Virus record (IMG/VR): IMGVR_UViG_3300030001_000013 | Location: 1 to 57,365 of that record | Length of the DNA stretch: 57,365 bases | Origin: a virus | Lineage: Duplodnaviria > Caudoviricetes | Direction: 5' to 3' (one strand) | Shown here: positions 1,877 to 57,365 of the stretch, in pieces | Numbering within the stretch: the first letter of the stretch is position 1 | How the letters are laid out: each line of letters opens with the position of its first letter | Notes under the pieces: generated by a model | The model's database searches: none | What the model saw: the letters and a program-made list of their open reading frames with translations, nothing else | Told to the model about the DNA's origin: nothing | Program-made: the position numbers and the translations under genes

Positions 1877-1907
1877 GCTCTCCTTTTCTCCATAACCTTT
1901 AGAGCGT

Positions 1908-1957
1908 TTGGCACTCTATAGAGCCTACCAACGCTTGATAAGCTCTAACAATGTCAA
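1908..1957 (-). repeat. hairpin repeat copy A (TTGACATT...AGTGCCAA family)
   Basis: Minus strand TTGACATTGTTAGAGCTTATCAAGCGTTGGTAGGCTCTATAGAGTGCCAA; five other copies found by eye. Confidence 0.9.
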
Positions 1958-4971: not shown

Positions 4972-5010
4972 GTTTACCGTCTCCCTTTATATATTTTTTG
5001 TAGAATGCGT

Positions 5011-5060
5011 TTGGCATTCCATAGAGCCTACCAACGCTTGATAAGCCCTAGCAATGTCAA
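5011..5060 (-). repeat. hairpin repeat copy B
   Basis: Near-identical to copy A (plus ttggcattccatagagcctaccaacgcttgataagccctagcaatgtcaa). Confidence 0.9.
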
Positions 5061-5159: not shown

Positions 5160-6161
5160 TTAAAATGGGTCTGGTTCTTCTTCACTAATCAATGTTTGTT
5201 CCTGCACCTGCGATTTTTTAGTAGATGTTTTTGTTTCTTTCTTTGTTTCTGGCTTGCTTGCTTTCTTTTCTTCAACCTTTTGTTCCTGAATTGGCTTTTC
5301 TTCTGCCACATTCGCTTCCTGTGCTTCGATTACTTCGCCGCCCTTGTCATTATCTTCATCCATATCTAAAACCTCGCTATTGGCATTCTGAATGATCTCA
5401 GCTTCAATCACTTCATCTGTGATGTTTTTTTCAGAACGATTCAATGATTCAGCAATTAAATAACTATCATTTGAACCATTAATCAGGGGCTTGCATGTTC
5501 TATTAATGACTGTCTTTTTTGCCATTTCTTCGGAAAATTTACCATGGACAGAACCGGGCTTAACATTTCCATGGTCATCAATAGGTAACATTTTCGATTG
5601 TTTCCATGCTTGTTTTATCTGCTCAAATGTCATTATCTGTGTGACATTTCGTTTTTCATCAGGAAATTCGACTACGCAATAAGCCGCTTTGATCTTTGTA
5701 TTATCAATACTATCTAACGTCTGCTCATGCTTTGTAATAATTTTCTTGCCATGTTCAATTTTGTATTCAAATATATCACCTTCATAAACAACTTCGGCAT
5801 AAGCTTCACTAGCTCCCGCCATTGTCTTTACTAAGTGGATTGTTCCAAAATAGCTACGCTGAAAGGTTAGTGTGCCGCCATATACAATGAAATACCCTTG
5901 CTTTTTTACTGGATTCAATCCTTGTGTGATTACATCTAGCAACGCCAACATTACAGAATCTCGTGAACATACTTCCAACGCTGGTTTCCCTACCTTATCC
6001 GTAACACCTTGCAACATTAACCATGAAGCAGTTAAAACATTTGCCGGAATATATTCTTTCGGAAATACCAATTCCTTACTTGCTACATATTCGCTTACCT
6101 TATGCTGTACCGTCTGAATGATCTTTTCCTGCTGAACCGCTTTATCTTTATCAACTGCCAT
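5160..6161 (-). CDS. recT: RecT-family single-strand annealing recombinase
   Basis: GLNPVKKQGYFIVYG, RSYFG, VVYEGD.FEY, EMAKKTVINR; acidic/Lys-rich tail. Confidence 0.9.
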   Translation of the reverse strand: MAVDKDKAVQQEKIIQTVQHKVSEYVASKELVFPKEYIPANVLTASWLMLQGVTDKVGKPALEVCSRDSVMLALLDVITQGLNPVKKQGYFIVYGGTLTFQRSYFGTIHLVKTMAGASEAYAEVVYEGDIFEYKIEHGKKIITKHEQTLDSIDNTKIKAAYCVVEFPDEKRNVTQIMTFEQIKQAWKQSKMLPIDDHGNVKPGSVHGKFSEEMAKKTVINRTCKPLINGSNDSYLIAESLNRSEKNITDEVIEAEIIQNANSEVLDMDEDNDKGGEVIEAQEANVAEEKPIQEQKVEEKKASKPETKKETKTSTKKSQVQEQTLISEEEPDPF

Positions 6162-9178: not shown

Positions 9179-9556
9179 ATGAAAAATCTAGGGTCAAAAT
9201 TGAAAGAATTGCGGAAGATGGAACGCTTAACCACGAAAGAATTAGCGGACAAACTCCAATTGTCGCAACCCTATATTAGTCAGATTGAAAGCGGCGGGCG
9301 CGTTCCACATCCTAAGAACATTCAAAAAATGGCAGACTTTTTCAACGTCCCGTACGGATACCTTATGACAGACGAAGCAATCAACCTAGATGAATTTAAA
9401 CAGGTTGAGGGGCTAATTATAGATAGAGGTAAAGAGAAATATATTCCATATTATTTAGTAGTTGATAAAGCAATTGAGGAGGAAATAACCCCCAGTGAAT
9501 TAGAAGATGCAATCGATTTTGTTAAAAAATATAAAAATAAAACGCCCTCAACATAA
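9179..9556 (+). CDS. CI-like XRE-family repressor
   Basis: LKELRK..RLTTKELADKLQLSQPYISQIESG.R.P; no peptidase domain visible. Confidence 0.85.
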   Translation: MKNLGSKLKELRKMERLTTKELADKLQLSQPYISQIESGGRVPHPKNIQKMADFFNVPYGYLMTDEAINLDEFKQVEGLIIDRGKEKYIPYYLVVDKAIEEEITPSELEDAIDFVKKYKNKTPST

Positions 9557-9569
9557 GAGGGCGTTTTCT
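9541..9569 (+). terminator. intrinsic terminator after the repressor
   Basis: AACGCCCTC-loop-GAGGGCGTT then TTCT. Confidence 0.7.
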
Positions 9570-9779
9570 GTTAATAAAAATTCTTTTTCATATATTTTAT
9601 TCACTAAAAATATTCCACCGATAAAAGCCCATTTTACAGATTTACTATGCCAAGCATAAATAATGTATCTTGCATGTAACATTGAATCCGCCTTCTTTTC
9701 GACTGATTATGAATATTTTTATTTAAATTATATTATAAATTAAAATTATAAATATTACAATAGGGGATATGTCAAAATA

Positions 9780-10898
9780 ATGAATAAACGCGCGAATGGT
9801 GAAGGAACATTTAGAATCAGAGATAATGGAACATGGGAATGCATGATAAGATACAATGGAAAACGCCATAGTGTATATGGTAAATCAAGAAAAGAATGCA
9901 TCACAAAATTAAAAGAATTAAAAAAGAAACTTGATTTTGGAATTGCAGAAAAATCAAAGCATATGACATATGAAACTCTTTTAAAAAATTATCTTGAAAA
10001 TATTATAGCGATCAAGAATAGACCGTCAACCTATGATAATTATAAAATCGTTATAGATAATCACCTAATACCTCATTTAGGAAAATATAAAGTTGATAAA
10101 TTAACGCGTACTGATATTCAAGACATGATCAAGAAAGAAAAGAAAGCGGGAAAATCTGCAAGCACTATCGGCTTAATTCATCATGTTTGCAAGACTTCGC
10201 TTGCCTATGCTATTGAATTAAAAATCATCATGGAAAATCCATCTTTCGGCGTTGTTAAGCCACAAATTGATAAAAAGGAAATGAGCGTATTAACCGAAGA
10301 CCAATTCCGTCATTTACGTGATGTTGGCGGCGATATTCGATCCAAAGAAAGAATGTTTTCCTGTTTTATATTTATGTTTTACACCGGACTGCGGCGCGGT
10401 GAAGCACTAGGATTAAAATGGTCTGATATTGATATGACTGAAAAATCATTATCAATGAAACGTGCTGTCACTAAATCAACATCAAAAGGCATTATAATTA
10501 CAAAAGGAAAAACTGCCCGCGCTGTACGAGCAATACCACTGCCGGAAAACTCAATAAAAGAATTGCTGATCTTTAAAGAAACACAAGCAAAAGAAAAAGC
10601 ATTTTACGGTAAAAAATACAATAATGAAAATTGGATATTCTGCCGACCGGACGGGAAACGTTATTACCCTACATCATTACGAAAAATATTCCTCCGTATT
10701 CTGGCTCTAGCAGACATTCCACCGATTCGAGTACATGATACTAGGCATACATTTGCAACGTTCTTGATGCTTGCAGGAGAGAACCCCAAGACTGTACAGG
10801 CAATTATGGGTCATGCTAATATTTCAACGACTTTAGGATATAGTCATGTTACTGATGGATTAAAACGTCAAGCGGCTGATAAATTGGATAATATATAA
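9780..10898 (+). CDS. int: tyrosine integrase
   Basis: N-terminal KRANGEG arm-binding motif; TGLRRGE, HDTRHT, MGH..ISTTLGYSH catalytic motifs. Confidence 0.95.
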   Translation: MNKRANGEGTFRIRDNGTWECMIRYNGKRHSVYGKSRKECITKLKELKKKLDFGIAEKSKHMTYETLLKNYLENIIAIKNRPSTYDNYKIVIDNHLIPHLGKYKVDKLTRTDIQDMIKKEKKAGKSASTIGLIHHVCKTSLAYAIELKIIMENPSFGVVKPQIDKKEMSVLTEDQFRHLRDVGGDIRSKERMFSCFIFMFYTGLRRGEALGLKWSDIDMTEKSLSMKRAVTKSTSKGIIITKGKTARAVRAIPLPENSIKELLIFKETQAKEKAFYGKKYNNENWIFCRPDGKRYYPTSLRKIFLRILALADIPPIRVHDTRHTFATFLMLAGENPKTVQAIMGHANISTTLGYSHVTDGLKRQAADKLDNI

Positions 10899-11130: not shown

Positions 11131-11201
11131 AGCCAATCCAGGGAATCGAACCCCATATTTTCGCTGTGCCGCGAAACGCTTTACCTTTAAGCTATATTGA
11201 C
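11131..11201 (-). ncRNA. degenerate tRNA-like RNA (Cys-like; 8-nt anticodon loop, no encoded CCA)
   Basis: Cloverleaf by eye: GTCAATA/GATTGGC acceptor, GCTT/AAGC D arm, TTTCG/CGAAA stem, TGGGG-TTCGATT-CCCTG T arm. Confidence 0.65.
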
Positions 11202-13783: not shown

Positions 13784-13859
<76 letters not shown>

Positions 13860-38959: not shown

Positions 38960-41242
38960 TTAATCTTCCCCGTCATCTACTGTTCTAAACGAACCAAAAT
39001 CATAAACATATGAAGCATCACGCGTACAATTTGGGTGAGCAATAGGATTGTCTATCAGCCAATCACAAGACTTCTCACCATTCGCATCAATGCATTCCTG
39101 ACAGCCGCATTCTGCTAAATCTGTAACCAATAATGATTTAACACATTTCGATTCATTACCGACCTTTGCAAACCCTGTATTATATCCGACTGCCGATTCT
39201 GTCCGTGCCACTGTTTCTGCTCTATTTTCACTGAATGCATAATTCGTCTGCAAGCGTTCTGACAATTGATTCCAATCCTCTTCATTTGCTAAACTGTTTG
39301 ATATGCAATTTCTAACAAGATTAGTTGTTGTTTCTTCCATGCCTGCCAATACTTTAGCTCCACGATCTTCCATGTAATCAGCAATATGTTTTGATGCATC
39401 TAGCGACCCCATATTAACCTCTACGCCTTGTTTATATGCTTCTGTTCCAATCATACCCGCGCCGCCATTCCAACCAACACCGTAATAATCACCGACCGAA
39501 TCAGACAATGCTTGCATTACAGCATCAGACAATAGGTTATTGGCTTCAACAAACTTTATCAATTCTTCTGTTACGCCTATATCCTTCGCCTGATCTAATA
39601 AATCGTCTAGCGAATCTTGCAATGCAACATTAAGAGCTTGTTTTCCTTTCTCTCTTAACTTGTCTAATAGGTCATCATCGTTTTTTTTTACGTTACCGTA
39701 CATTTTATTAACGTCCTCTGGATTCGGCTCACTAGCAGGATTTGTGGCTGTTTTATCATTATTCTGATCATCCGTATTGACTTTATTTTGCAATATCGCC
39801 TGTGCTTGTGCCTTTTGCGTTTCCAACTGCGCTTGTGCCATATCTGTTTGCTGTTGTCTGCTTGCCGCCATTGCCTGTAATGTTTCTTCTGGAATAGGTG
39901 GCAACCCTGCTAATTCTAATAAATGATTCAATAATTGATCATTAGGGAATAATGTTGCCCCCGACTGTGTGAGTGAAGTCATAAACGTTGACAATTTCAA
40001 AAGGTCAGGAGGTTCTATTGGGTCATGCTCTAACGTTGGCAATGCTGTCAATCCGCTGAATGCGTTTAATTTGAATAACATAGGTATTGCCTTTTTGTTG
40101 AATACCTGCACGATTGAATCTAATATTGTGCCAATCGCTAACCCGAATAAATCCGTTTTATCTGTACTGAGTGCATTACTGCCGACACCCGTTAATCCCA
40201 GGAAAATAAAATCAGCCGCTACCGTTTGAGCAATACGCTGTTCATGCCGCGTGATGATTGCATTTGTATCAAAATTACGTTTACCGCCTGTTGTCATTAA
40301 TGAAAATGTGAATCCTGTGTCTTGACCGTCTGCTGTCTTTGCGGCAGGGAATACAATTCCTTCGCGCTTATCCTGACGAACTTGTTTAACCATCTTAGCA
40401 ACATAACGTAATGTTGACTTTTCTTCATCACTGGCGTTTTTGCTCATAACCTTTGCAGGTACTGTTGCAAATGGTATGCCTGCTAAATCGCGCTCAATGC
40501 CGATACCTTCGATCTGGATGATCTTTTTCTTGTAGTAGTATGAAACATATGCATTACGCAATATTGATCGACCTTCTGGATTGTTCTTTTCTGTATCATA
40601 TCTGAATAGCAAACACTTTTCATATGGAATGAAATTCAATTGATAAGTAGGTGGTGATAACTGCCACATTCCTAACAGATTATTCTTATCGTCAAATTCC
40701 CACTTCCAAAATGTTTCTTGCGCCCTGATGCTTATTTTACGAAAACCGATCTTGCCATCATTATATTGGCTGTTTGTTTTTGGGTCTCCTGTTTCGCCCA
40801 TACGCTTTTTAAATACCATTTCATGATAAGCCCAACCAAATGGTAACATGCTAAGAATATCGGAAAGCAACTCCTGAAATGTCTGCTCCATATCATTCAT
40901 TAAGCACTGATCTAAAAAGTCAGCCGCTTCTTTGTCTGCATCTGTATCGCCGCCCGCTTGCACGTAGAATCTTGATTGACGTACTAGCATCTTAATTGCA
41001 AAAAGCATTGCACCTACTACACTGCAATTGTCCCGCATTTCCTTATACTTCTTAATCCCATTCTGTCCTCTTAGATCATGTAGCCATTCCTCTTCTACCC
41101 AACCACTAACGCGGCTTAATCCGGTATTACCTACCTCAATAAGCGGATCAACCTCTGGTATATCTTCCTGTGCCATACCATCCATCAAATCTAATCCGTT
41201 TGTATTTACAATACCATTTATATTATTGTTCACATGTTCCAC
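38960..41242 (-). CDS. portal protein (DUF935-like) fused to a Mu gpF-like minor head domain
   Basis: MLPFGW..HE.V, NPEGRS.LR..Y, GIERDLAG.P; C-terminal RAETVARTE and HPNC. Confidence 0.85.
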   Translation of the reverse strand: MEHVNNNINGIVNTNGLDLMDGMAQEDIPEVDPLIEVGNTGLSRVSGWVEEEWLHDLRGQNGIKKYKEMRDNCSVVGAMLFAIKMLVRQSRFYVQAGGDTDADKEAADFLDQCLMNDMEQTFQELLSDILSMLPFGWAYHEMVFKKRMGETGDPKTNSQYNDGKIGFRKISIRAQETFWKWEFDDKNNLLGMWQLSPPTYQLNFIPYEKCLLFRYDTEKNNPEGRSILRNAYVSYYYKKKIIQIEGIGIERDLAGIPFATVPAKVMSKNASDEEKSTLRYVAKMVKQVRQDKREGIVFPAAKTADGQDTGFTFSLMTTGGKRNFDTNAIITRHEQRIAQTVAADFIFLGLTGVGSNALSTDKTDLFGLAIGTILDSIVQVFNKKAIPMLFKLNAFSGLTALPTLEHDPIEPPDLLKLSTFMTSLTQSGATLFPNDQLLNHLLELAGLPPIPEETLQAMAASRQQQTDMAQAQLETQKAQAQAILQNKVNTDDQNNDKTATNPASEPNPEDVNKMYGNVKKNDDDLLDKLREKGKQALNVALQDSLDDLLDQAKDIGVTEELIKFVEANNLLSDAVMQALSDSVGDYYGVGWNGGAGMIGTEAYKQGVEVNMGSLDASKHIADYMEDRGAKVLAGMEETTTNLVRNCISNSLANEEDWNQLSERLQTNYAFSENRAETVARTESAVGYNTGFAKVGNESKCVKSLLVTDLAECGCQECIDANGEKSCDWLIDNPIAHPNCTRDASYVYDFGSFRTVDDGED

Positions 41243-42528
41243 TCACTTTCATTTAAAAAATCATCGTCTATACCGTCAATCAATTCGCCATCAATTGCGC
41301 CTGTATCATATCTCATTTCGTCATTGATAGCATAACGCGATGTATCGATTGAATGATTGTTCTTATCAGGGAATTTCGCTTTCCAATTTCCCTCTCTATC
41401 TTTGTCATACTCATAATTCAAGAACTCTCTTGCTGTGTTTTGACATCTATCGTCATCAATGATAATCTCTGTTAAATCTTGCAAGAACTTAACACCGAAA
41501 TCAACCGAATCTTTACCCTTCTTACACGGCAAGACATTCATCTGATATTCGTCATTCAATTGTGCAATTGACTTACCTTCTGCACTATCTGCAATGATTT
41601 CATAGTTATCTGGATTTTGGACTTTTATCTCCCTTGCAAGTTTTCTGTTGCTCATGCCAACCTTGTGTATTTCAAAGAATATGAATAATCGTTTATTCTT
41701 TCTGTCAAAATGACATTCCATGTAATGAACAGGATCAATTGAATAACCGAAATCTATTCCTCGTCTTATCCGGTCGAATGATTCTATTTCAACATCTGAT
41801 ATTGTTCTGATCGTTATATTCTGGAATATCTCGCCGCCAATGCCGACTGGTATCCCTAAATATTCATGCTGATAAGCTTTTTCGTTTGTCTTGGATAATT
41901 GTTCGGCTTCAAACAAAAAGACCTTACCTAGCCAATCCCTTGGAACGGTTAAATAAGTGCTTTCATGTACTAACCTATCAGGCCGCTTTATCATTTTTTC
42001 GGAATTAACCCATGCTGATTTATTTCGCGGTGGATTATAAGAATAGAAGGCCACAAACGTTTCACCGCCACGCATTAACGATTGATTTACGCTTCTTATT
42101 TCTTCCATTCCGGCAAACTCTGCAAGTTCTTCATACCATACAAACTTTGCATATCCTTTGCTAAACTTGATAGACTTTAATTTCAATGGCGTATCTAATC
42201 CACGAAATATGATCTTTTGTCCTGTTGGCGTGTATGTCAATTCCATTGGTGATACTGTTGCTTTCCAAAACTCACTCACGCCTAATGCATCAATAGCCCA
42301 CAAGAACTGTGCATATATTGAATCTTTGCATGTATCTCGAATCTTACGCATTGCAACACAATTTGCTTCTGGGTCTTTCATCATTCCCAATATAATTTCA
42401 ACACTTATGAATGATGACTTCGTTGAACCACGTCCACCTGCAAGCCAGAAATGACTATACTTATTATTCTTGATTGCATTGTGGACACCATAGAAAGACG
42501 GCGCAATTAACTTTTTAAGGCTAATCAT
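41230..42528 (-). CDS. terL: terminase large subunit (PBSX family)
   Basis: GGRGSTKS, WYEE, SYNPP, GIDFG, NHSID..RY; start moved to MISLKK. Confidence 0.93.
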   Translation of the reverse strand: MISLKKLIAPSFYGVHNAIKNNKYSHFWLAGGRGSTKSSFISVEIILGMMKDPEANCVAMRKIRDTCKDSIYAQFLWAIDALGVSEFWKATVSPMELTYTPTGQKIIFRGLDTPLKLKSIKFSKGYAKFVWYEELAEFAGMEEIRSVNQSLMRGGETFVAFYSYNPPRNKSAWVNSEKMIKRPDRLVHESTYLTVPRDWLGKVFLFEAEQLSKTNEKAYQHEYLGIPVGIGGEIFQNITIRTISDVEIESFDRIRRGIDFGYSIDPVHYMECHFDRKNKRLFIFFEIHKVGMSNRKLAREIKVQNPDNYEIIADSAEGKSIAQLNDEYQMNVLPCKKGKDSVDFGVKFLQDLTEIIIDDDRCQNTAREFLNYEYDKDREGNWKAKFPDKNNHSIDTSRYAINDEMRYDTGAIDGELIDGIDDDFLNESEWNM

Positions 42529-42955
42529 CTTCTGATTCTGTATCCTGTGGAATATCGTCAACGATCTTAACGCCAATACTTCCACTGTGGTTCATATCGA
42601 CCCTTTCTTGTCTACCCCAATGCTGTGCATTCTTTCTTTCTTGTCTCCATGCCGCCGCTTGCCAAGCCCCTGCATCTGCCGCCCTCCCTATTGTCATATT
42701 GTCTCTGATCTCTGATTCTGCAAGGGATTTTTCTATTGCGTTCAGAAAGTTTCTATGGATACCTTTCTTTTGTTCATTCCCTTTTTTCATCCAATCATAC
42801 AAACTGGTCTTACTTACGCCAACAAAAGCCGCCGCTGTTTCTATATAATTACCTGCCGCAACTAACTTACAAACTTTGTCCTGTAACTCCTGTGTTAGCT
42901 TTGTTGGTCTTCCATTCGTCTTAGGCTTCTTGAATGCTTTTCCATCTTCTTCCAT
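42521..42955 (-). CDS. terS: terminase small subunit
   Basis: GRPTKLT HTH, WQAAAW..ER; directly upstream of terL. Confidence 0.85.
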   Translation of the reverse strand: MEEDGKAFKKPKTNGRPTKLTQELQDKVCKLVAAGNYIETAAAFVGVSKTSLYDWMKKGNEQKKGIHRNFLNAIEKSLAESEIRDNMTIGRAADAGAWQAAAWRQERKNAQHWGRQERVDMNHSGSIGVKIVDDIPQDTESEDD

Positions 42956-49140: not shown

Positions 49141-49178
49141 GTTATCGTCTCCCTATATTTATTTTTTGGTGGAATGGT

Positions 49179-49227
49179 TTGGCACTCCATGAAGCCCACT
49201 CGATAGAATGGACTTTTGCAATGTCAA
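49179..49227 (-). repeat. hairpin repeat copy C
   Basis: Minus strand TTGACATTGCAAAAGTCCATTCTATCGAGTGGGCTTCATGGAGTGCCAA. Confidence 0.9.
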
Positions 49228-51641: not shown

Positions 51642-52364
51642 TTAAACTATTTCTCTACTAGGCTTTGAATCTGCGCGTGTTACATAATATTTATTTGTGA
51701 TCAATGTTGCAGGTTCTTTATTATCTCCGAATGACTGCGGTGCAAAACGATCTACAAAAACACGTTCGCCGCATTCCCTGCAAGCACAAAAGTTTGTATC
51801 TGCGAATAATCTAGCAAAATATGTTGCGCCGCATCCACAATCAATTTTGTATAATACTTTGTTTAAATCGCGCTGAACTGTTGTTTCATTGTTTTTTATA
51901 CTGTAATCAGGAACTAAATCAGTTTCTATGTTTGATTTAACATTTTCTTTGCTTACATTAGGCGGCAATAAAAGACCTTCACTGTGATCTGTAGCTGTTT
52001 TACCTTGCAAAAATCTGCTAAATTCTGACTTATGCTCTTGAATAATATGTTTGCTCATTGAATTTGTAATATTTTTAAATACGTCTGCATCTACTTCGGG
52101 AATGCTCATATTTACTGTACGACCGCATCCACAATTATGGTGTTCTATATTTTTCGCTTTTGGCTCTGATGTGCCAACTTCTGTAATTTCTATGCTGATC
52201 ACATTTTTTAAATCAATTGAAAATGTTTGACCATCACCAGATTTTGTGAAGAAAATACCACCATTTCCATGGGCTTTCGCTACTGCCAACGCCACATTTA
52301 ATTTTAACGCATATGTGTATTTTCTTCCTGCTCTTGTTGTCAATTCTAATAATGATTCGTTCAT
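51642..52364 (-). CDS. hypothetical protein with zinc-ribbon motifs
   Basis: CGCG twice and CREC. Confidence 0.6.
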   Translation of the reverse strand: MNESLLELTTRAGRKYTYALKLNVALAVAKAHGNGGIFFTKSGDGQTFSIDLKNVISIEITEVGTSEPKAKNIEHHNCGCGRTVNMSIPEVDADVFKNITNSMSKHIIQEHKSEFSRFLQGKTATDHSEGLLLPPNVSKENVKSNIETDLVPDYSIKNNETTVQRDLNKVLYKIDCGCGATYFARLFADTNFCACRECGERVFVDRFAPQSFGDNKEPATLITNKYYVTRADSKPSREIV

Positions 52365-52627
52365 TTTTCCGCCGCCTTTTTAATATTTTTCACAACATCT
52401 GAGGATTTAACTCTTAAATCGCTAATCAGCTTATCAATCGCAATCTCTGCGGTCATTATCCCTTTTGCTTCTGCATTAATAGCCAATCCCGAAATCAACG
52501 CTGACATTCCAACTAACATATCTTGATCGGTTGCCCTGTTTGAATAAACAAACTGTTCATCTTTTTTTGCGTTTAAATCCAATAAGATATACTTTCTACC
52601 TCTGCTTACTATGTTTCTTGCTTTCAT
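52361..52627 (-). CDS. hypothetical protein
   Basis: 88 aa, in operon. Confidence 0.55.
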   Translation of the reverse strand: MKARNIVSRGRKYILLDLNAKKDEQFVYSNRATDQDMLVGMSALISGLAINAEAKGIMTAEIAIDKLISDLRVKSSDVVKNIKKAAEK

Positions 52628-52629
52628 AT

Positions 52630-52911
52630 TTACGCCGCCTTTACAATGTACAATATTTTATTGAATTGATAACCTTTTACTTTTTTTCTTCTTGACTTAG
52701 TTATCCTTCGTGAATTTGTTCTTCTTTTTTCTGTTTTACCTCTAATCCTATCATATTTTCTTATTTGATCTATGTTGTTATTTCTGTGTATCATTACTCT
52801 TTTCTTTGTGCATTCTTTGCATTGATTTAAATGACCATCAGCCATTTGACTATGTTTATAAAATTCACTTATTGGAAGCGTTTTACCACATTTTCTACAA
52901 ATTTTATCCAT
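52630..52911 (-). CDS. zinc-finger protein, probably a truncated HNH-type endonuclease
   Basis: KICRKCG..LP.SEFY.....DG..N.CKEC, but no HNH core follows. Confidence 0.55.
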   Translation of the reverse strand: MDKICRKCGKTLPISEFYKHSQMADGHLNQCKECTKKRVMIHRNNNIDQIRKYDRIRGKTEKRRTNSRRITKSRRKKVKGYQFNKILYIVKAA

Positions 52912-52915
52912 AATA

Positions 52916-53326
52916 TTACCAAGGAATTTCATCGTCAGGGAATACCTGACTGCCAAACGAATCAGCCCCACTTGTAGCACCTGAATCATTTCCGGCAGGT
53001 GTTGCCGCTGTTTGCGATTTTGAACCTAGAAACTCAACATTGTTTACCATGACTTCCACAACGTATACTTTCTTGCCGTCCTTATCATCATATGTCCTTG
53101 TATTGATTCGACCGCCTACAGCAATATGTGACCCTTTTTGTGATGCATAATTTCCCATTGCTTCTGCGGTTTTTCCGAATGCTACGCAAGGAACGAAATC
53201 AGCTTTCTTTTCACCTTTTACAAACTTATTTACTGCTAGATTAAAATTCAAAACGCAGGTTCCTTCCTGCGTATATCTACACTCTGTATCCCTTGTAAGA
53301 TGACCAATTAAATTTACATCATTCAT
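52916..53326 (-). CDS. ssb: single-stranded DNA-binding protein
   Basis: MN.V.LIG.LTRD.E.RYT, ADF, G.I.TR.Y, acidic DDEIPW tail. Confidence 0.93.
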   Translation of the reverse strand: MNDVNLIGHLTRDTECRYTQEGTCVLNFNLAVNKFVKGEKKADFVPCVAFGKTAEAMGNYASQKGSHIAVGGRINTRTYDDKDGKKVYVVEVMVNNVEFLGSKSQTAATPAGNDSGATSGADSFGSQVFPDDEIPW

Positions 53327-53349
53327 TATTTATTACCTCCATTTATTTT

Positions 53350-53670
53350 CTAATCGCAATAACTTCTATTACAATGTGGACAACCTGTAATTAATTCTGT
53401 GCTTGCTCTTTCAAGCGAAATACCATATACACGGTCAACCATTTCACCATCAATATTACATTCTGTTCCTCTTGAATATGGCGCATCTGGATTGTCTTTA
53501 TATCCTACATTCTGATAAATATTTTTATTGCAATTCCAACAAATTCCGCTATGAGGTGCGAAATCAGGATAACCATTTTTATTCTGATAATCCGATTGTG
53601 ATTTTGCGCATTCACTAATTTCTTTATCAGTCTTTCTTATTAACTTTTCCGTAAAGATACCCCATTTCAT
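53350..53670 (-). CDS. hypothetical zinc-binding protein
   Basis: FAP..G.CWNC and ITGCPHCNRSYCD. Confidence 0.65.
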   Translation of the reverse strand: MKWGIFTEKLIRKTDKEISECAKSQSDYQNKNGYPDFAPHSGICWNCNKNIYQNVGYKDNPDAPYSRGTECNIDGEMVDRVYGISLERASTELITGCPHCNRSYCD

Positions 53671-54463
53671 ATTCTATATTTTTATTGCCTAATGCTGTTT
53701 CAATAGCCGCCACATCTTCTTTTGAAATGTTAAATATTTTCATCATAACACTGACATTGGGTTTATCCTTTGTCTTGATCTCTCTTTTTACTTCCTGCAC
53801 GGCCTTGAATGAAACTTCCTTGCCTTTGTTATCCTGCATTACCTTGGTTTGCTCTTCTGGTTCTAAGCTTGCCAACTCTGCCGCTGTTGAAAACTTTAAA
53901 TTGTCTTTTTTCATTTCTTCTTTTAATTCAGGAATTAGATTATTTTCGATGTTATCCATCTTAGCAATCTTCGCAGACGAAACGCCTATTGTCTTTGAAA
54001 CAAAATCCCGCAATCTTCCGGGTACTTTATTTTCTTTGCAATACTCAATAAGCGGCTCTTTCAATCGCTTGTACTGCTCGATCTTTTCCCATTCAGATAA
54101 TTTTCTTGTTCCCATATTGGCAATGATAATAGCAATCTGTTCCTCTGATCTACTCCTGAATGTCTCTACCTGACAAGGAACATGATCGTCTATATCAACA
54201 CCCCTGCTAATTAGATTCATCATTGCCTGCCGCCGTCTATGCCCTGAAATTACTTTATATCCACCCCCTTCTAACGGCGTAACAATCAGATTTTCTTTTA
54301 CGCCGCCCCTGATTTCAATTGCATCCTCTAAACTTTCAATGTCGCTTAGTGTATAAAAATTATCTTCATGTGGGACTAATTCATAAACACTGATCTGTTT
54401 CATAACACCTTTTTCAACTAAATCATCTTTTTTGATGAAACTATTTAATAAACCCATTGTCAT
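53627..54463 (-). CDS. parB: ParB-family partition protein
   Basis: L.P...N.Y, Y.VISGHRR, AN...R, HTH region. Confidence 0.85.
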   Translation of the reverse strand: MTMGLLNSFIKKDDLVEKGVMKQISVYELVPHEDNFYTLSDIESLEDAIEIRGGVKENLIVTPLEGGGYKVISGHRRRQAMMNLISRGVDIDDHVPCQVETFRSRSEEQIAIIIANMGTRKLSEWEKIEQYKRLKEPLIEYCKENKVPGRLRDFVSKTIGVSSAKIAKMDNIENNLIPELKEEMKKDNLKFSTAAELASLEPEEQTKVMQDNKGKEVSFKAVQEVKREIKTKDKPNVSVMMKIFNISKEDVAAIETALGNKNIEYEMGYLYGKVNKKD

Positions 54464-54469
54464 TACCTC

Positions 54470-55213
54470 CTATAGATTGAAATACTCTTTTGTAAATGTA
54501 ATATAATCCATTGTTGCACCGCTCCGGCGTGAATAATTAATAAGTGGACGTTGTACAAATGTGCTACCTGCTACTTTTGCAGAATAGCGAATCCTTGTAT
54601 TAAAAATCTTGTAATCTTTGATGTTTTGATCGCTTATAATTTCATTTTCTGTTTTATTGTAACGAGTTATCAAGCACCCTTTAAACGACAATTTAGGATT
54701 TATTTCCTTCACTTCTTCTATAATCCCCTTTAATTGATCGAATCCGTCAAAGCTGAACTGATCCACTACGACAGGTACAATGATTTCATCTGATGCACTT
54801 AGAACATTTGTAACGCTTGCGTTTATGTCCGGCGGGTTATCAATAATACAATAATCATAATCATTAACGCTTGCTAATGCTCTTTGCAATATCTTGGCTG
54901 TTCCAATGCTCATTTTTGCCGCAAGCATGTTATTTGTTTCAAACAATTTCATATTAGAAGGTAATACGTCTAGCCCTTCATATTTCGTATGCTGAATAAC
55001 ATTTTCAATTGATTTACTTTTCAAAAGAACATCTGAAATACTTGGATTTTCCTGATCATACAATCCAAAAAACTTGCTTGTGTTGCCCTGCTTGTCATTA
55101 TCAATGATTAATACTTTTTTATGGAACATTGTTGCTAGAATATGAGAAACATTAATCGAAGTGATACTTTTCCCCACGCCGCCTTTTAGATTCATAATGG
55201 TTATAACTTTCAT
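54470..55213 (-). CDS. parA: ParA-family ATPase
   Basis: KGGVGKS, IDNDKQGN, IIDNPP. Confidence 0.92.
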   Translation of the reverse strand: MKVITIMNLKGGVGKSITSINVSHILATMFHKKVLIIDNDKQGNTSKFFGLYDQENPSISDVLLKSKSIENVIQHTKYEGLDVLPSNMKLFETNNMLAAKMSIGTAKILQRALASVNDYDYCIIDNPPDINASVTNVLSASDEIIVPVVVDQFSFDGFDQLKGIIEEVKEINPKLSFKGCLITRYNKTENEIISDQNIKDYKIFNTRIRYSAKVAGSTFVQRPLINYSRRSGATMDYITFTKEYFNL

Positions 55214-55244
55214 GCTTATCGTCTCCCTTGCTTTTTGTAGAGTT

Positions 55245-55292
55245 TTGGCACTCTATAGAGCCTATCAACTTGATAAACTCTAACAATGTCAA
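55245..55292 (-). repeat. hairpin repeat copy D
   Basis: plus ttggcactctatagagcctatcaacttgataaactctaacaatgtcaa. Confidence 0.9.
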
Positions 55293-55296
55293 ATAT

Positions 55297-55476
55297 TTAG
55301 CAATGGACTGATTTATCTGTGTAATAATAAAAATCACTTATTACCTTTGATCTATTTTCCGGCGTATTAGGCAAATTATATCCGCTTTTATCATCACCGC
55401 AAAATAATTCTCCATCATTATTTATACCGCAAGACATTCCGCTTTCTTTATCTTCTTTAAATATTTTCATTTTCAT
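55297..55476 (-). CDS. cassette-like small protein (59 aa), not in ORF track
   Basis: Manual translation MKMKIFKEDKESGMSCGINNDGELFCGDDKSGYNLPNTPENRSKVISDFYYYTDKSVHC; RBS AAGGGGA. Confidence 0.75.
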   Translation of the reverse strand: MKMKIFKEDKESGMSCGINNDGELFCGDDKSGYNLPNTPENRSKVISDFYYYTDKSVHC

Positions 55477-55496
55477 TATCCCCTTTAAATTTTATT

Positions 55497-55545
55497 TTGG
55501 CACTCCATGAAGCCCACTCAATCGAATGGACTTTTGCAATGTCAA
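55497..55545 (-). repeat. hairpin repeat copy E
   Basis: Near-identical to copy C. Confidence 0.9.
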
Positions 55546-55546
55546 A

Positions 55547-55744
55547 TCATGAATGAGATAAACACTTTTTGCATATATTTCCTGACGTTGGATTTTCAAC
55601 TGGTTCACCTTGTAATTCATTTAATCTATCTAAATTGTAAGATTGACAGCATGGTATAATTCTTGATTCCCCATTGATAAATGGTTTATCATTTCCTACT
55701 TTATGCCACATTCCACTTTTTGACTTCATCCACATTTCAATCAT
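55547..55744 (-). CDS. cassette-like small Cys/His protein
   Basis: 65 aa, WH..., CC, CKKC; lies between repeats F and E. Confidence 0.75.
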   Translation of the reverse strand: MIEMWMKSKSGMWHKVGNDKPFINGESRIIPCCQSYNLDRLNELQGEPVENPTSGNICKKCLSHS

Positions 55745-55760
55745 TCCTTTTTAATTTATT

Positions 55761-55808
55761 TTGGAACTCTATAGAACCCACTCACCGAATGAGTTCTAAC
55801 AATGTCAA
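55761..55808 (-). repeat. hairpin repeat copy F
   Basis: plus ttggaactctatagaacccactcaccgaatgagttctaacaatgtcaa; A/D-type flanks with a C/E-type core. Confidence 0.88.
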
Positions 55809-56026
55809 ATATGAATAGGGTTATCAATGATTATTCTAACTTCATCCTCTGTCAATTCAGGGCAACATAAATTTTTATTTTCACTTACTTCGATAGAATT
55901 TTCAGGGTAAAATACTGCCCAAGACTGACCTATTGGCAACTTGCTACATGTACAATTATGGTATAACCTGCATCTGTGTTTCACCTTGCAACCATGATTC
56001 AAACATACTGTTATTCCTTTTTGCAT
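55805..56026 (-). CDS. cassette-like small Cys-rich protein
   Basis: 73 aa, 7 Cys; stop TGA lies inside repeat F. Confidence 0.75.
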   Translation of the reverse strand: MQKGITVCLNHGCKVKHRCRLYHNCTCSKLPIGQSWAVFYPENSIEVSENKNLCCPELTEDEVRIIIDNPIHI

Positions 56027-56076
56027 TTCAATCGCTCCCTTTTGTGTTCTATTTGAACCACTCTTTCTATGTCTCT

Positions 56077-56105
56077 ATTATAACTCTCTGCTATATTAAT
56101 GTAAA
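56077..56105 (-). promoter_or_regulatory. sigma70-type promoter with putative operator (repeated)
   Basis: TTTACA-17-TATAAT; TATAACTCTCTGCTATA; upstream terminator at about 56146-56170. Confidence 0.8.
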
Positions 56106-56169
56106 GCTTTTTATTGCAAATAATTATATTATTTTACAAAAGAAAAAGAGGAAGATTTTATTCCCCCTC

Positions 56170-56667
56170 TTACTTGTTTATTGCTGATTTCCATTCGTTT
56201 AATTGATCACTTGTTAGCTTGATCTCTTTAGTGAATCCATAGAAATGTACTTCTAATCTAACCTCTGCCGCCTGTGCTAATTGATTTACCATTTCTTTAT
56301 CATCAAAATAATAGAATGCCGCATTGTTTGCCGTCCGTTTCATAATTGACATTCCGTCTGCTTCGTTCCATTTGACCTGACTTCCTGCAAATGTTGCTTG
56401 ATACTTGATTCCGTCAATTACAACGTCTAGCCCTGCACTTGTTGCAACGTCCATATTTTCATAACTAATAAATGAATAGCCGATCACATACCATGTTCTT
56501 GTATTACTTGAATACTGATTGAAGAATAAAGCTTCTTGATTTCCGTTTATTGGGATTGCTGATTCTGAAAACTTATACCCTTCTCTGTATCCTGTCGTCA
56601 TCTGCGCCATTGATACACCTTGCAAGCACATCACTAAAATGATTACCAATAATAATATTTTTTTCAT
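56170..56667 (-). CDS. secreted/periplasmic protein
   Basis: Signal peptide MKKILLLVIILVMCLQGVSMA after an AAGGAG RBS. Confidence 0.7.
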   Translation of the reverse strand: MKKILLLVIILVMCLQGVSMAQMTTGYREGYKFSESAIPINGNQEALFFNQYSSNTRTWYVIGYSFISYENMDVATSAGLDVVIDGIKYQATFAGSQVKWNEADGMSIMKRTANNAAFYYFDDKEMVNQLAQAAEVRLEVHFYGFTKEIKLTSDQLNEWKSAINK

Positions 56668-56726
56668 GTTTGCTGTCTCCTTTATTTTTTGGTTTACTGA
56701 CACAATCATATTGTTTTGAAATTGGT

Positions 56727-57218
56727 TCAATTTTCATTGTTGATTACCTCGTTTTCTATCCTGAACTCACATTTTCCTGCTTGTGGATTTTCATTCAATA
56801 CCGGAATACTTAAACGATGAAACACTTTTCTGAACCTGCATTCTTTTACACATTCGCCCTGTTCACAAGCTGTGCAACTATTTAACGCTAACTCGCCTAT
56901 TTCAAAAATATCATCTAATGACACTTGCACAATATCCGTTTGATTTTCAGCTATAAAGCGTTTATTATCTTTCGATACTAGCATTACAGCCGTATGATCT
57001 TTTCGCCGCATGACGGGCAAATACTGGCTCTTGTCTAGCAATGCAACACGTTCATCAATTACCTTTTCTAAATTTGTTGTTGCTGTTTTTATTCTCTTAT
57101 GCCACTGCGGATTTTTCACATCGGATAAAGAAAGTCCGCATTCGGTAGCTAAACAACCAAGTGTTAAAAAACTAGCCATTTCTTGGCTTGAAATATAAGG
57201 CGTTCCACGTAAACCCAT
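56727..57218 (-). CDS. conserved phage protein (DUF5651-like)
   Basis: YISS.E N-terminus; C..C......C.......L.IP......G.CEF. Confidence 0.6.
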   Translation of the reverse strand: MGLRGTPYISSQEMASFLTLGCLATECGLSLSDVKNPQWHKRIKTATTNLEKVIDERVALLDKSQYLPVMRRKDHTAVMLVSKDNKRFIAENQTDIVQVSLDDIFEIGELALNSCTACEQGECVKECRFRKVFHRLSIPVLNENPQAGKCEFRIENEVINNEN

Positions 57219-57365
57219 TATTTACTCCCCTTTTATTGTTATCTGCTATTTTAATTTAAATATTTTATTACTATTGGCTATATTTTTAGCTATAAAAAAG
57301 ATTATTTCTTTGACAATTCTTGAAATTTTAATAATTTTTTGATTTTTTGAATACGTTGCTTAAAT

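Follow-up and report, generated by a model that had tools for sequence, protein, structure and literature searches.

A hairpin of about 50 nt, here called H, separates small early genes in a temperate phage from a peat metagenome, and it is at this hairpin that the gene content of related phages changes. The phage is represented by a complete IMG/VR virus record (IMGVR_UViG_3300030001_000013; 57,365 bp, rated 100% complete), the whole of which is the window analyzed here, and the array under study (positions 55,245 to 56,105) consists of three small open reading frames (ORFs), each closed by a copy of H, upstream of the gene parA. The array is real, the repeat is a well-supported structured element, and a cassette theme of T4-like phages is thereby encountered anew in uncultured temperate phages. 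On balance, we favor an explanation in which H is a hairpin of the early mRNA, serving as a processing or stability signal, that doubles as portable homology for recombination.

Nearly all genes of the window are carried on the minus strand, and on this strand the array begins with an early promoter, TTTACA-17-TATAAT (56077..56105), one of five near-identical copies; the preceding unit is closed, after a 186-amino-acid (aa) gene, by a terminator-like hairpin with a T-run (56146..56171). There follow a Cys-rich 73-aa ORF of no known family (55805..56026), whose TGA stop lies within the TTGACA of hairpin F (55760..55808); a 65-aa ORF (55547..55744), whose TGA ends 1 nt before the TTGACA of hairpin E (55496..55545); and a 59-aa ORF (55297..55476), whose TAA ends 4 nt before the TTGACA of hairpin D (55244..55292). 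Copy D is directly upstream of parA (54470..55213; AAA_31/CbiA/ParA), the first conserved gene past the array, and the gene after parA is ParB-like. A reading made from the letters of the DNA without database searches (the sequence-only reading) had proposed this layout, with units of ~250–280 bp, a ribosome-binding site for each ORF, stops within the repeat or no more than 4 nt from it, and mutually unrelated ORFs. All of this holds: the repeat starts are 253 and 263 nt apart, a purine-rich Shine-Dalgarno sequence precedes each of the three ORFs, and local tblastn against the window and the related loci reveals no match of one ORF to another.

The products of the three ORFs have no Pfam or PHROGs match, and the leads from the language-model search Atlas are weak, with the 73-aa ORF pointing to unnamed viral clusters. 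Searches of Pfam, PHROGs and Atlas likewise gave no support for the anti-defense role that had been suggested for these small genes. The 65-aa ORF has homologues in two related contigs, L125, where it stands upstream of another copy of H, and L197, where a 66-aa product with 71% identity is followed by a variant hairpin; neither single-sequence nor alignment searches found further loci related to it. The 59-aa ORF has a homologue of 60 aa (49% identity) between two H copies in the contig L223. Further homologues of the 59-aa ORF occur without the hairpin, at two loci in a GC-richer phage (the homologue in L327 has no H), which shows that this gene family is not tied to H. The 59-aa product also bears a weak language-model likeness to single RCC1-type repeats, with a score of 0.85 that is under the tool's own bar.

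The window holds exactly six copies of H, the number given by the sequence-only reading, all of them on the minus strand, in gene orientation and within early operons. Besides D, E and F these are copy A (1907..1957), which follows a 53-aa ORF behind the promoter at 2194-2166 and precedes a replication-initiation-like gene (1427-1876); copy B (5010..5060), which lies in the 5' leader directly behind the promoter at 5129-5101, with no ORF between; and copy C (49178..49227), after a 100-aa ORF behind the promoter at 49611-49583. With a covariance model derived from these six, the copies score 72–76 bits, and the next best site in the window, at 17.6 bits, is the opposite strand of D. An exact pattern gives six matches on the reverse strand, none on the forward strand and none when a backwards-read control pattern is used.

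All copies of H are 48–51 nt long. Alignment and consensus folding of the six window copies (MAFFT/RNAalifold) yield an imperfect hairpin of 21 pairs, which from the base up comprises three pairs, an A.C mismatch, four pairs, a G.G mismatch and an upper stem of 13–14 pairs with one bulge, capped by a loop of 3–5 nt. The arms of the base, TTGACATTG and GAGTGCCAAA, are nearly invariant, while the upper stem is variable and covaries.

That it is the pairing which is maintained is supported by a larger set of 18 distinct copies, to which the window contributes six, L125 (a 4.5-kb contig whose ParA is 93% identical to that of the window phage) three, L223 two, and G001 (62.7 kb, complete), G004 (59.8 kb, complete), G005 (28.7 kb), L206, L189, L197 and L208 one each. 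These relatives were found by pattern scans filtered with the covariance model, the accepted copies being those at 58 bits or above, plus that of L208 at 40.6 bits. In an alignment fitted to the model, and to that extent favoring structure, standard pairing is present in 95% of 377 cells and compensatory changes are seen at 10 of the 21 pairs; the separate MAFFT/RNAalifold run on six copies gives the same helix. The covariation score was reached by none of 500 shuffles, and pairing falls to 32–46% when the partner is slid by 1–3 columns. Within the base helix of copy L223b, a C-G pair has become U-A by changes on both sides, converting TTGACA to TTGATA, which indicates that the pairing rather than the hexamer is conserved there.

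The helix also has a preferred strand. Several of the conserved pairs are U-G on the gene (transcribed) strand, and the sense strand is more stable than its complement in 17 of the 18 copies, with mean values of -18.7 and -11.9 kcal/mol, respectively. The hairpin matches no catalogued RNA: at gathering thresholds, Rfam finds in the window only two tRNAs, and over 55150-56250 there is no hit to H at E values up to 10.

Two side observations concern the structure. In L197 (4925-4968), the variant hairpin behind the 66-aa homologue combines the 5' arm TTGACATTG with a perfect 12-bp upper stem and the 3' arm AAATTGTC; it escapes both the model and the patterns, and the hairpin family must therefore be wider than the counts given here. 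In addition, a CNCUCU-type segment within the 12–20 nt past the hairpin can pair with the 3' arm in 9 of the 18 copies (A, B, C, D, L125b, L125c, G001, L206 and L208), with compensatory changes in B and C, and the same segment is also complementary to the Shine-Dalgarno sequence that follows. When folded for minimum energy, A, B and L125b form this helix in place of the base helix, and so do C, D, L125c and G001 if given a shorter 3' context. A translational-coupling switch was examined by partition-function folding of 17 copies and rejected: upon blocking of the 5' arm, accessibility of the Shine-Dalgarno sequence rises in about five copies, falls in about eight and is flat in the rest.

H occupies a narrowly defined place relative to the genes around it. 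The ORF upstream is always small (53–100 aa). In 10 of the 18 copies (A, F, L125a, L125b, L125c, L223a, L189, L197, L208 and G004, the reading frame for L125a having been assigned by hand), the TGA within TTGACA serves as its stop codon, and in another five (C, D, E, L223b and G005) the stop ends 1–8 nt before TTGACA. The distance is 25 nt in G001 and 53 nt in L206, and B has no upstream ORF. The next start codon is found 19–38 nt past H.

On the minus strand, the early region of the phage extends from ~9000 to 1 and continues from 57365 to ~43000; it contains five near-identical strong promoters, at 56105-56077, 49611-49583, 5129-5101, 2194-2166 and 9048-9020. Together with their leaders, these promoter regions span 56135-56027, 49640-49539, 5160-5060, 2225-2116 and 9080-8987. 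Each promoter has an A-rich upstream stretch, TTTAC(A/T), the invariant spacer TATAGCAGAGAGT and TATAAT, and is followed by a common leader with a small GTTC...GAAC hairpin; the invariance of the spacer suggests that it is an operator for the phage repressor. Terminator-like hairpins precede two of the five. In four of the five transcription units H comes shortly after the promoter, at distances from the -35 box of 69 nt (B), 237 nt (A), 297 nt (F) and 384 nt (C), B lying in the leader itself and the other three after one small ORF. The same order of promoter, small ORF, H and operon recurs at L125c, G001, L223a and L197, and, as judged by eye, in G004; in all of these and in A, B, C and F, the promoter is sigma-70-like and H follows it by 69–384 nt. 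H lacks the marks of an intrinsic terminator: its 3' flanks are A-rich with no T-run, and no copy of H is among the terminator-like sites listed by the terminator scans.

The sequence-only reading had proposed, as its own test, that cassette number, order and content should vary between related phages with breakpoints at the repeat, and this is what is seen in all informative comparisons. Between the window and L125, homology begins at 1957, the first base (5' edge) of copy A; upstream of this point the window has a promoter and the 53-aa ORF, and L125 has a 90-aa ORF behind another H. Homology between the same two sequences resumes at 55293, the 5' edge of copy D, upstream of which L125 has a single 82-aa ORF in place of the 73-aa ORF, F, the 65-aa ORF, E and the 59-aa ORF of the window. 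The common left end of this replaced segment lies 32 nt inside the first ORF, past the common promoter and leader. Positions 1-157 of L125 correspond to the end of the 65-aa ORF, H and the ribosome-binding site (window 55623-55468), yet in L125 they stand before the 90-aa ORF, which places the 65-aa gene at a different H-flanked position.

Comparisons among the other relatives agree with this picture. L223 equals G004 with the addition of one unit of ~250 nt (H plus the 60-aa ORF) between two H copies, the two being otherwise collinear. For G001 and L206, similarity of 92.8% starts at the edge of H. G001 and L197 have the promoter, H and genes further downstream in common and differ in the segments flanking H, such that H forms an island of homology; the L197 ORF before H is a homologue of the 82-aa ORF of L125. 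One indel goes against the simple picture, as the 116-aa gene at 44-394 of the window (minus strand) is missing from L125 and the ends of this indel are without H.

The position of the crossover within H is variable. At the parA position (D versus L125c) and for G001 versus L206, the hairpin centers differ over the same downstream DNA, from which it follows that the center traveled with the upstream side. On the other hand, in G004 and L223 the resident center was kept with the downstream gene, and a new center arrived upstream of the new ORF. As the center is linked to upstream DNA in some events but to downstream DNA in the rest, one fixed crossover point cannot account for them all. Copies within a genome are one another's closest relatives despite having different neighbors (C and E, ~6 kb apart, 96%; A and B, 92%; L125a and L125c, 92%), and D and L125c, although orthologous by position, are not the closest match to one another. 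Such similarity of copies within a genome is a signature of gene conversion, that is, of concerted evolution. General homology-driven recombination within H thus appears the more likely mechanism, as judged from a small number of events. Of the "site-specific or RecT-mediated recombination" put forward by the sequence-only reading, the second half is matched by a gene for a RecT-family single-strand annealing protein (5160..6161, minus strand), a candidate catalyst of recombination between H copies, and the first half, a site-specific integron-like system, is unsupported.

True copies of H were found by the pattern scans and model only in IMG/VR and metagenome contigs. A blastn search of phage and plasmid collections with 52000-57365 returned nothing related, only short matches to an HNH-type endonuclease gene and one 49-nt match. 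Among species-representative genomes there were 30 pattern matches, the best at 33.1 bits and none of them real, although the exact-arm pattern used misses variants of the F, B and G004 types. An initial pattern scan gave at least 118 stretches, of which 80 loci were scored with none above 25.4 bits, and all were discarded as chance matches. A scan with the promoter pattern matched the L125 contig alone. At the protein level there is hardly any relationship among the window phage, G001, G004 and G005, with no protein common to all four and 27–54% identity for those that are shared. The H copies of the same four records are 70–96% identical, and H must thus have moved between otherwise unrelated phages. 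As no protein is common to all four, the factor that reads H, if there is one, is probably the host's.

How might one element come to have both a conserved structure and a place at the joints between genes? From the positions of the repeated early promoters, we infer that H is transcribed. Its RNA would then fold into a hairpin of ~21 bp that begins at the stop of the small upstream gene and ends 19–38 nt before the next start, and it would serve between cistrons as a signal to be recognized by some factor of the host. An RNA signal and a host factor are suggested by the strand bias, by the orientation of H with the genes, by a helix that keeps a length of about two turns, by its placement in the leaders of early operons and between their cistrons, and by the lack of a common phage protein. 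The likeliest reader would be an RNase III-type endonuclease specific for double strands, by which the message of the small gene and that of the genes downstream would be separated and stabilized. H is also the sole sequence conserved between unrelated small early genes and common to unrelated phages, and this is the ground for supposing that it doubles as portable homology. Recombination by RecT or by host RecA would delete, duplicate, insert and relocate units of hairpin plus small ORF, and copies inside one genome would be continually homogenized. We regard some RNA-level role for H as rather probable, and about half of that probability falls to processing or stabilization of the RNase III type; the identity of both the reader and the recombining enzyme is to be taken as putative.

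RNase III sites of early polycistronic mRNAs, exemplified by the R sites of T7 and those of the Bacillus phage SP82, are imperfect hairpins of about two turns, alike within a phage and positioned on the transcribed strand within the leader and in the gaps between early genes. H resembles them in being an imperfect hairpin of at least ~20 bp (21 pairs) with the sense strand favored, its transcription being presumed from the promoters. It differs in that its arms are conserved across unrelated phages to a greater degree than is known to be required of such sites. For SP82, cutting of mRNA sites by the RNase III of Bacillus subtilis is reported in work that is cited in PMC4838370.

Several points weigh against a processing signal that doubles as homology. 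Transcription through H is deduced from promoter positions, and cleavage at H is a prediction. The invariant arms, the perfect TTGACA and the fixed A.C and G.G mismatches exceed what RNase III usually needs and are better suited to a dedicated binding protein or a role at the DNA level; arms of this kind could alternatively reflect a specific binding protein. Three tandem copies in one operon are superfluous for a single regulatory site. A signal for processing between cistrons in general would be expected more often than once per genome, which is all that G001 and G004 have. Perfect identity in the conserved arms extends over just 9–14 nt, a short stretch for homologous recombination to be efficient, and the comparisons amount to about six events in a handful of metagenomic contigs. 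Finally, assembled contigs from four DNA runs, which are incapable of revealing deletion or circle junctions, gave none; the loose ends there and the joints 55292>56076 and 55545>56076 represent other genomic copies of the hairpin and promoter.

The strongest of the alternatives is that H is the site of a specific regulator on nascent early RNA, one per early unit, acting in antitermination in the manner of nut or put sites or as a translational operator. Invariant base arms with conserved mismatches below a variable upper stem are what such a site would be expected to show, and H does come soon after the early promoter in nearly every unit, is single in G001, G004 and G005, and belongs to units that have terminators at their ends. 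The ability of the 3' arm to pair with the CNCUCU segment in half of the copies, with compensation in B and C, speaks for it as well. Against it, no phage protein is common to all four H-bearing records, the tandem copies F, E and D would be redundant in this role, and the fold test for unmasking of the Shine-Dalgarno sequence gave inconsistent results over the 17 copies. We consider such a regulator site unlikely, even if it is the best placed of the alternatives.

The comparison with T4-type promoter/stem-loop modules (PeSLs), made already in the sequence-only reading, is sound as to behavior and fails as to parts. According to PMC2839356, a PeSL is a stem-loop in or beside a working sigma-70 promoter, often between its -35 and -10 boxes, that acts as a terminator, and indels and replacements between relatives are there, and in PMC4122927, ascribed to homologous recombination. 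Exchange between neighboring PeSLs also gives rise to mini-circles. PeSLs and H are both repeated motifs, each placed between the stop of a small ORFan and the next Shine-Dalgarno sequence and start, among early non-essential genes; both contain a stem-loop with G-T pairs, and in both cases the ends of indels and replacements between close relatives fall at the motif. What H lacks are the internal promoter and the terminator tail: no workable promoter is predicted inside it, its hexamers being 29–30 nt apart, and the promoters of the phage form a separate set of repeats. H is also a hairpin of ~21 bp with invariant arms and a covarying center, and its phages, unlike those that bear PeSLs, are temperate, low in GC and unrelated to T4.

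One may nevertheless ask if H is a PeSL proper, that is, a composite promoter and terminator at the DNA level, with TTGACA as the -35 box, TATAGA or CATGGA as the -10 box and, between them, a stem-loop that attenuates upstream transcription. The order of parts (stop, -35 box, stem-loop, Shine-Dalgarno sequence, start) is that of a PeSL as given in PMC2839356, and TTGACA is a perfect -35 hexamer in 17 of the 18 copies. The spacing from TTGACA to the TATAGA-like hexamer is nevertheless 29–30 nt and not 16–18, the second hexamer is CATGGA in half of the copies, and among the sites listed by the promoter scan there is no full TTGACA-spacer-TATAAT with the -35 box of an H. Its sole match within a copy is a weak one at 55503-55475 (GTGCCA-17-GATAAT, 9/12), the first hexamer of which belongs to the 3' arm of copy E. 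In the single copy that has TTGATA, a compensating change is present in the 3' arm, pointing again to selection on pairing and not on the hexamer; the stem has no T-run behind it, and the true promoters and terminators of the phage are separate, canonical elements. Taken together, these findings make a composite promoter and terminator doubtful, and somewhat more so than a regulator site.

Less probable still is the integron-like system that the sequence-only reading had proposed, in which H would be the site of a phage-borne cassette system, an attC analogue recombined as a folded single strand of DNA by a dedicated, host-encoded or still unrecognized site-specific recombinase. Such a system would capture and excise small early genes, possibly of counter-defense function, and pass them among unrelated phages of one host community. 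The likeness is real in several respects. As an imperfect palindrome, H combines conserved outer arms with a variable, covarying center, and it has fixed mismatches, one bulge and an asymmetry between its strands; ORF stop codons lie against it or within it, the co-oriented cassettes differ between relatives at H, and H is common to unrelated phages. In PMC5027507, attC sites are likewise described as imperfect palindromes defined by structure, at the 3' end of small, co-oriented, promoterless ORFs, in arrays whose content varies among relatives. The same source gives as criteria the R'' (RYYYAAC) and R' (GTTRRRY) boxes at the ends of the site, a length of 57–141 nt, extrahelical bases and an unpaired central spacer of 5–6 nt per arm. 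As the sequence-only reading had already remarked, H lacks these boxes: neither occurs in any of the six copies on either strand, and there is no such pair in 55200-56150. H is too short (48–51 nt), and in place of a central spacer it has only single-base mismatches and one bulge.

The enzymology offers no better support for an integron. The sole integrase of the window phage (9780..10898, plus strand) is of the ordinary phage tyrosine type, with Phage_integrase and SAM_3 domains in Pfam, and the suspicion that it is not IntI-like was correct: it scores 46.7 bits on TIGR02249 (cut-off 265) and 37.6 bits on NF011946 (cut-off 435). It is, moreover, encoded ~45 kb from the array and on the opposite strand. 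No recombinase is common to the H-bearing phages, and there is neither an IntI nor an attI/Pc platform. A fixed crossover point, by which an attC center would travel with its upstream ORF, is also lacking, the center being upstream-linked in G001/L206 and D/L125c and downstream-linked in G004/L223, with the caveat that these are few events. Two complete genomes (G001 and G004) have a single H and no array, copy B has no cassette, and the better-folding strand is the coding strand.

Equally improbable is that H is a selfish miniature repeat of the REP or MITE kind, spreading between phages and functionless for them, for while its presence in unrelated phages at 70–96% identity, its intergenic positions and its absence from species-representative genomes (within the limits of the pattern used) would fit, its orientation strictly follows that of the genes, it is placed exactly between a stop codon and the following ribosome-binding site, its length is constant with compensated changes in the stem, and no transposase or HUH nuclease is beside any copy or common to the phages.

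A further relative by appearance is the family of SAS and ESAS repeats of Cluster K mycobacteriophages. PMC3203893 describes ESAS arms of 17 bp with a spacer of 4–13 bp, which stay with their gene family. These repeats are like H in being oriented, imperfect inverted repeats with a variable spacer, found in a group of temperate siphoviruses immediately before gene starts, and a role in expression is suspected for them. H differs from what is described there in its sequence and hosts, in marking mosaic joints and in its covarying stem.

Host-takeover and counter-defense functions tend to reside in small early phage genes, whose transfer from one phage to another is little understood. Beyond the T4-like phages, there are few cases in which the joints of such gene exchange coincide exactly with a defined, repeated regulatory element. 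Being present at every informative joint, H can be used in searches for hot spots at which accessory genes turn over in temperate phages not yet cultured, and it offers a testable case of one element that may serve both gene expression and gene shuffling.

A second portable regulatory piece was noticed among the same relatives, a common leader cassette in which a CCGCAnnnnTGCGG hairpin and then a ribosome-binding site stand before different small ORFs. It is present in G004, G005 and L197 with 88–94% identity, its sites being L316 1240-1288, L317 1247-1322 and L197 4686-4734. A 14-nt match to the 5' flank and arm of H (TATTTGACATTGTT) with no hairpin after it is found in G001 at ~58282 (minus strand), equivalent to L137 ~10594, and also at L135 3324 and L136 4527; that of G001, on the opposite strand to the real copy, may be a relic.

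As to the remainder of the record, the G+C content of the window is 35.7%, and the plus strand carries a repressor-like gene together with the integrase at 9179-10898. The large terminase is PBSX-type (41230-42585), and besides the RecT-family protein the phage encodes an SSB, an SMC-like ATPase, a metallo-beta-lactamase-fold nuclease and a DUF1064 protein. The close relative L125 spans the two ends of the window, with L125 1971-2011 corresponding to window 42-2 and L125 2009-3380 to window 57365-55994; since L125 joins both ends, the record is circularly permuted. The two tRNA genes found with Rfam are on the minus strand, at 11131-11201 (32.9 bits) and 13787-13859 (70.2 bits). Finally, a perfect inverted repeat of 19 nt has its arms 2.8 kb apart, one in a 240-aa gene (52209-52227) and the other in parA (54998-55016).

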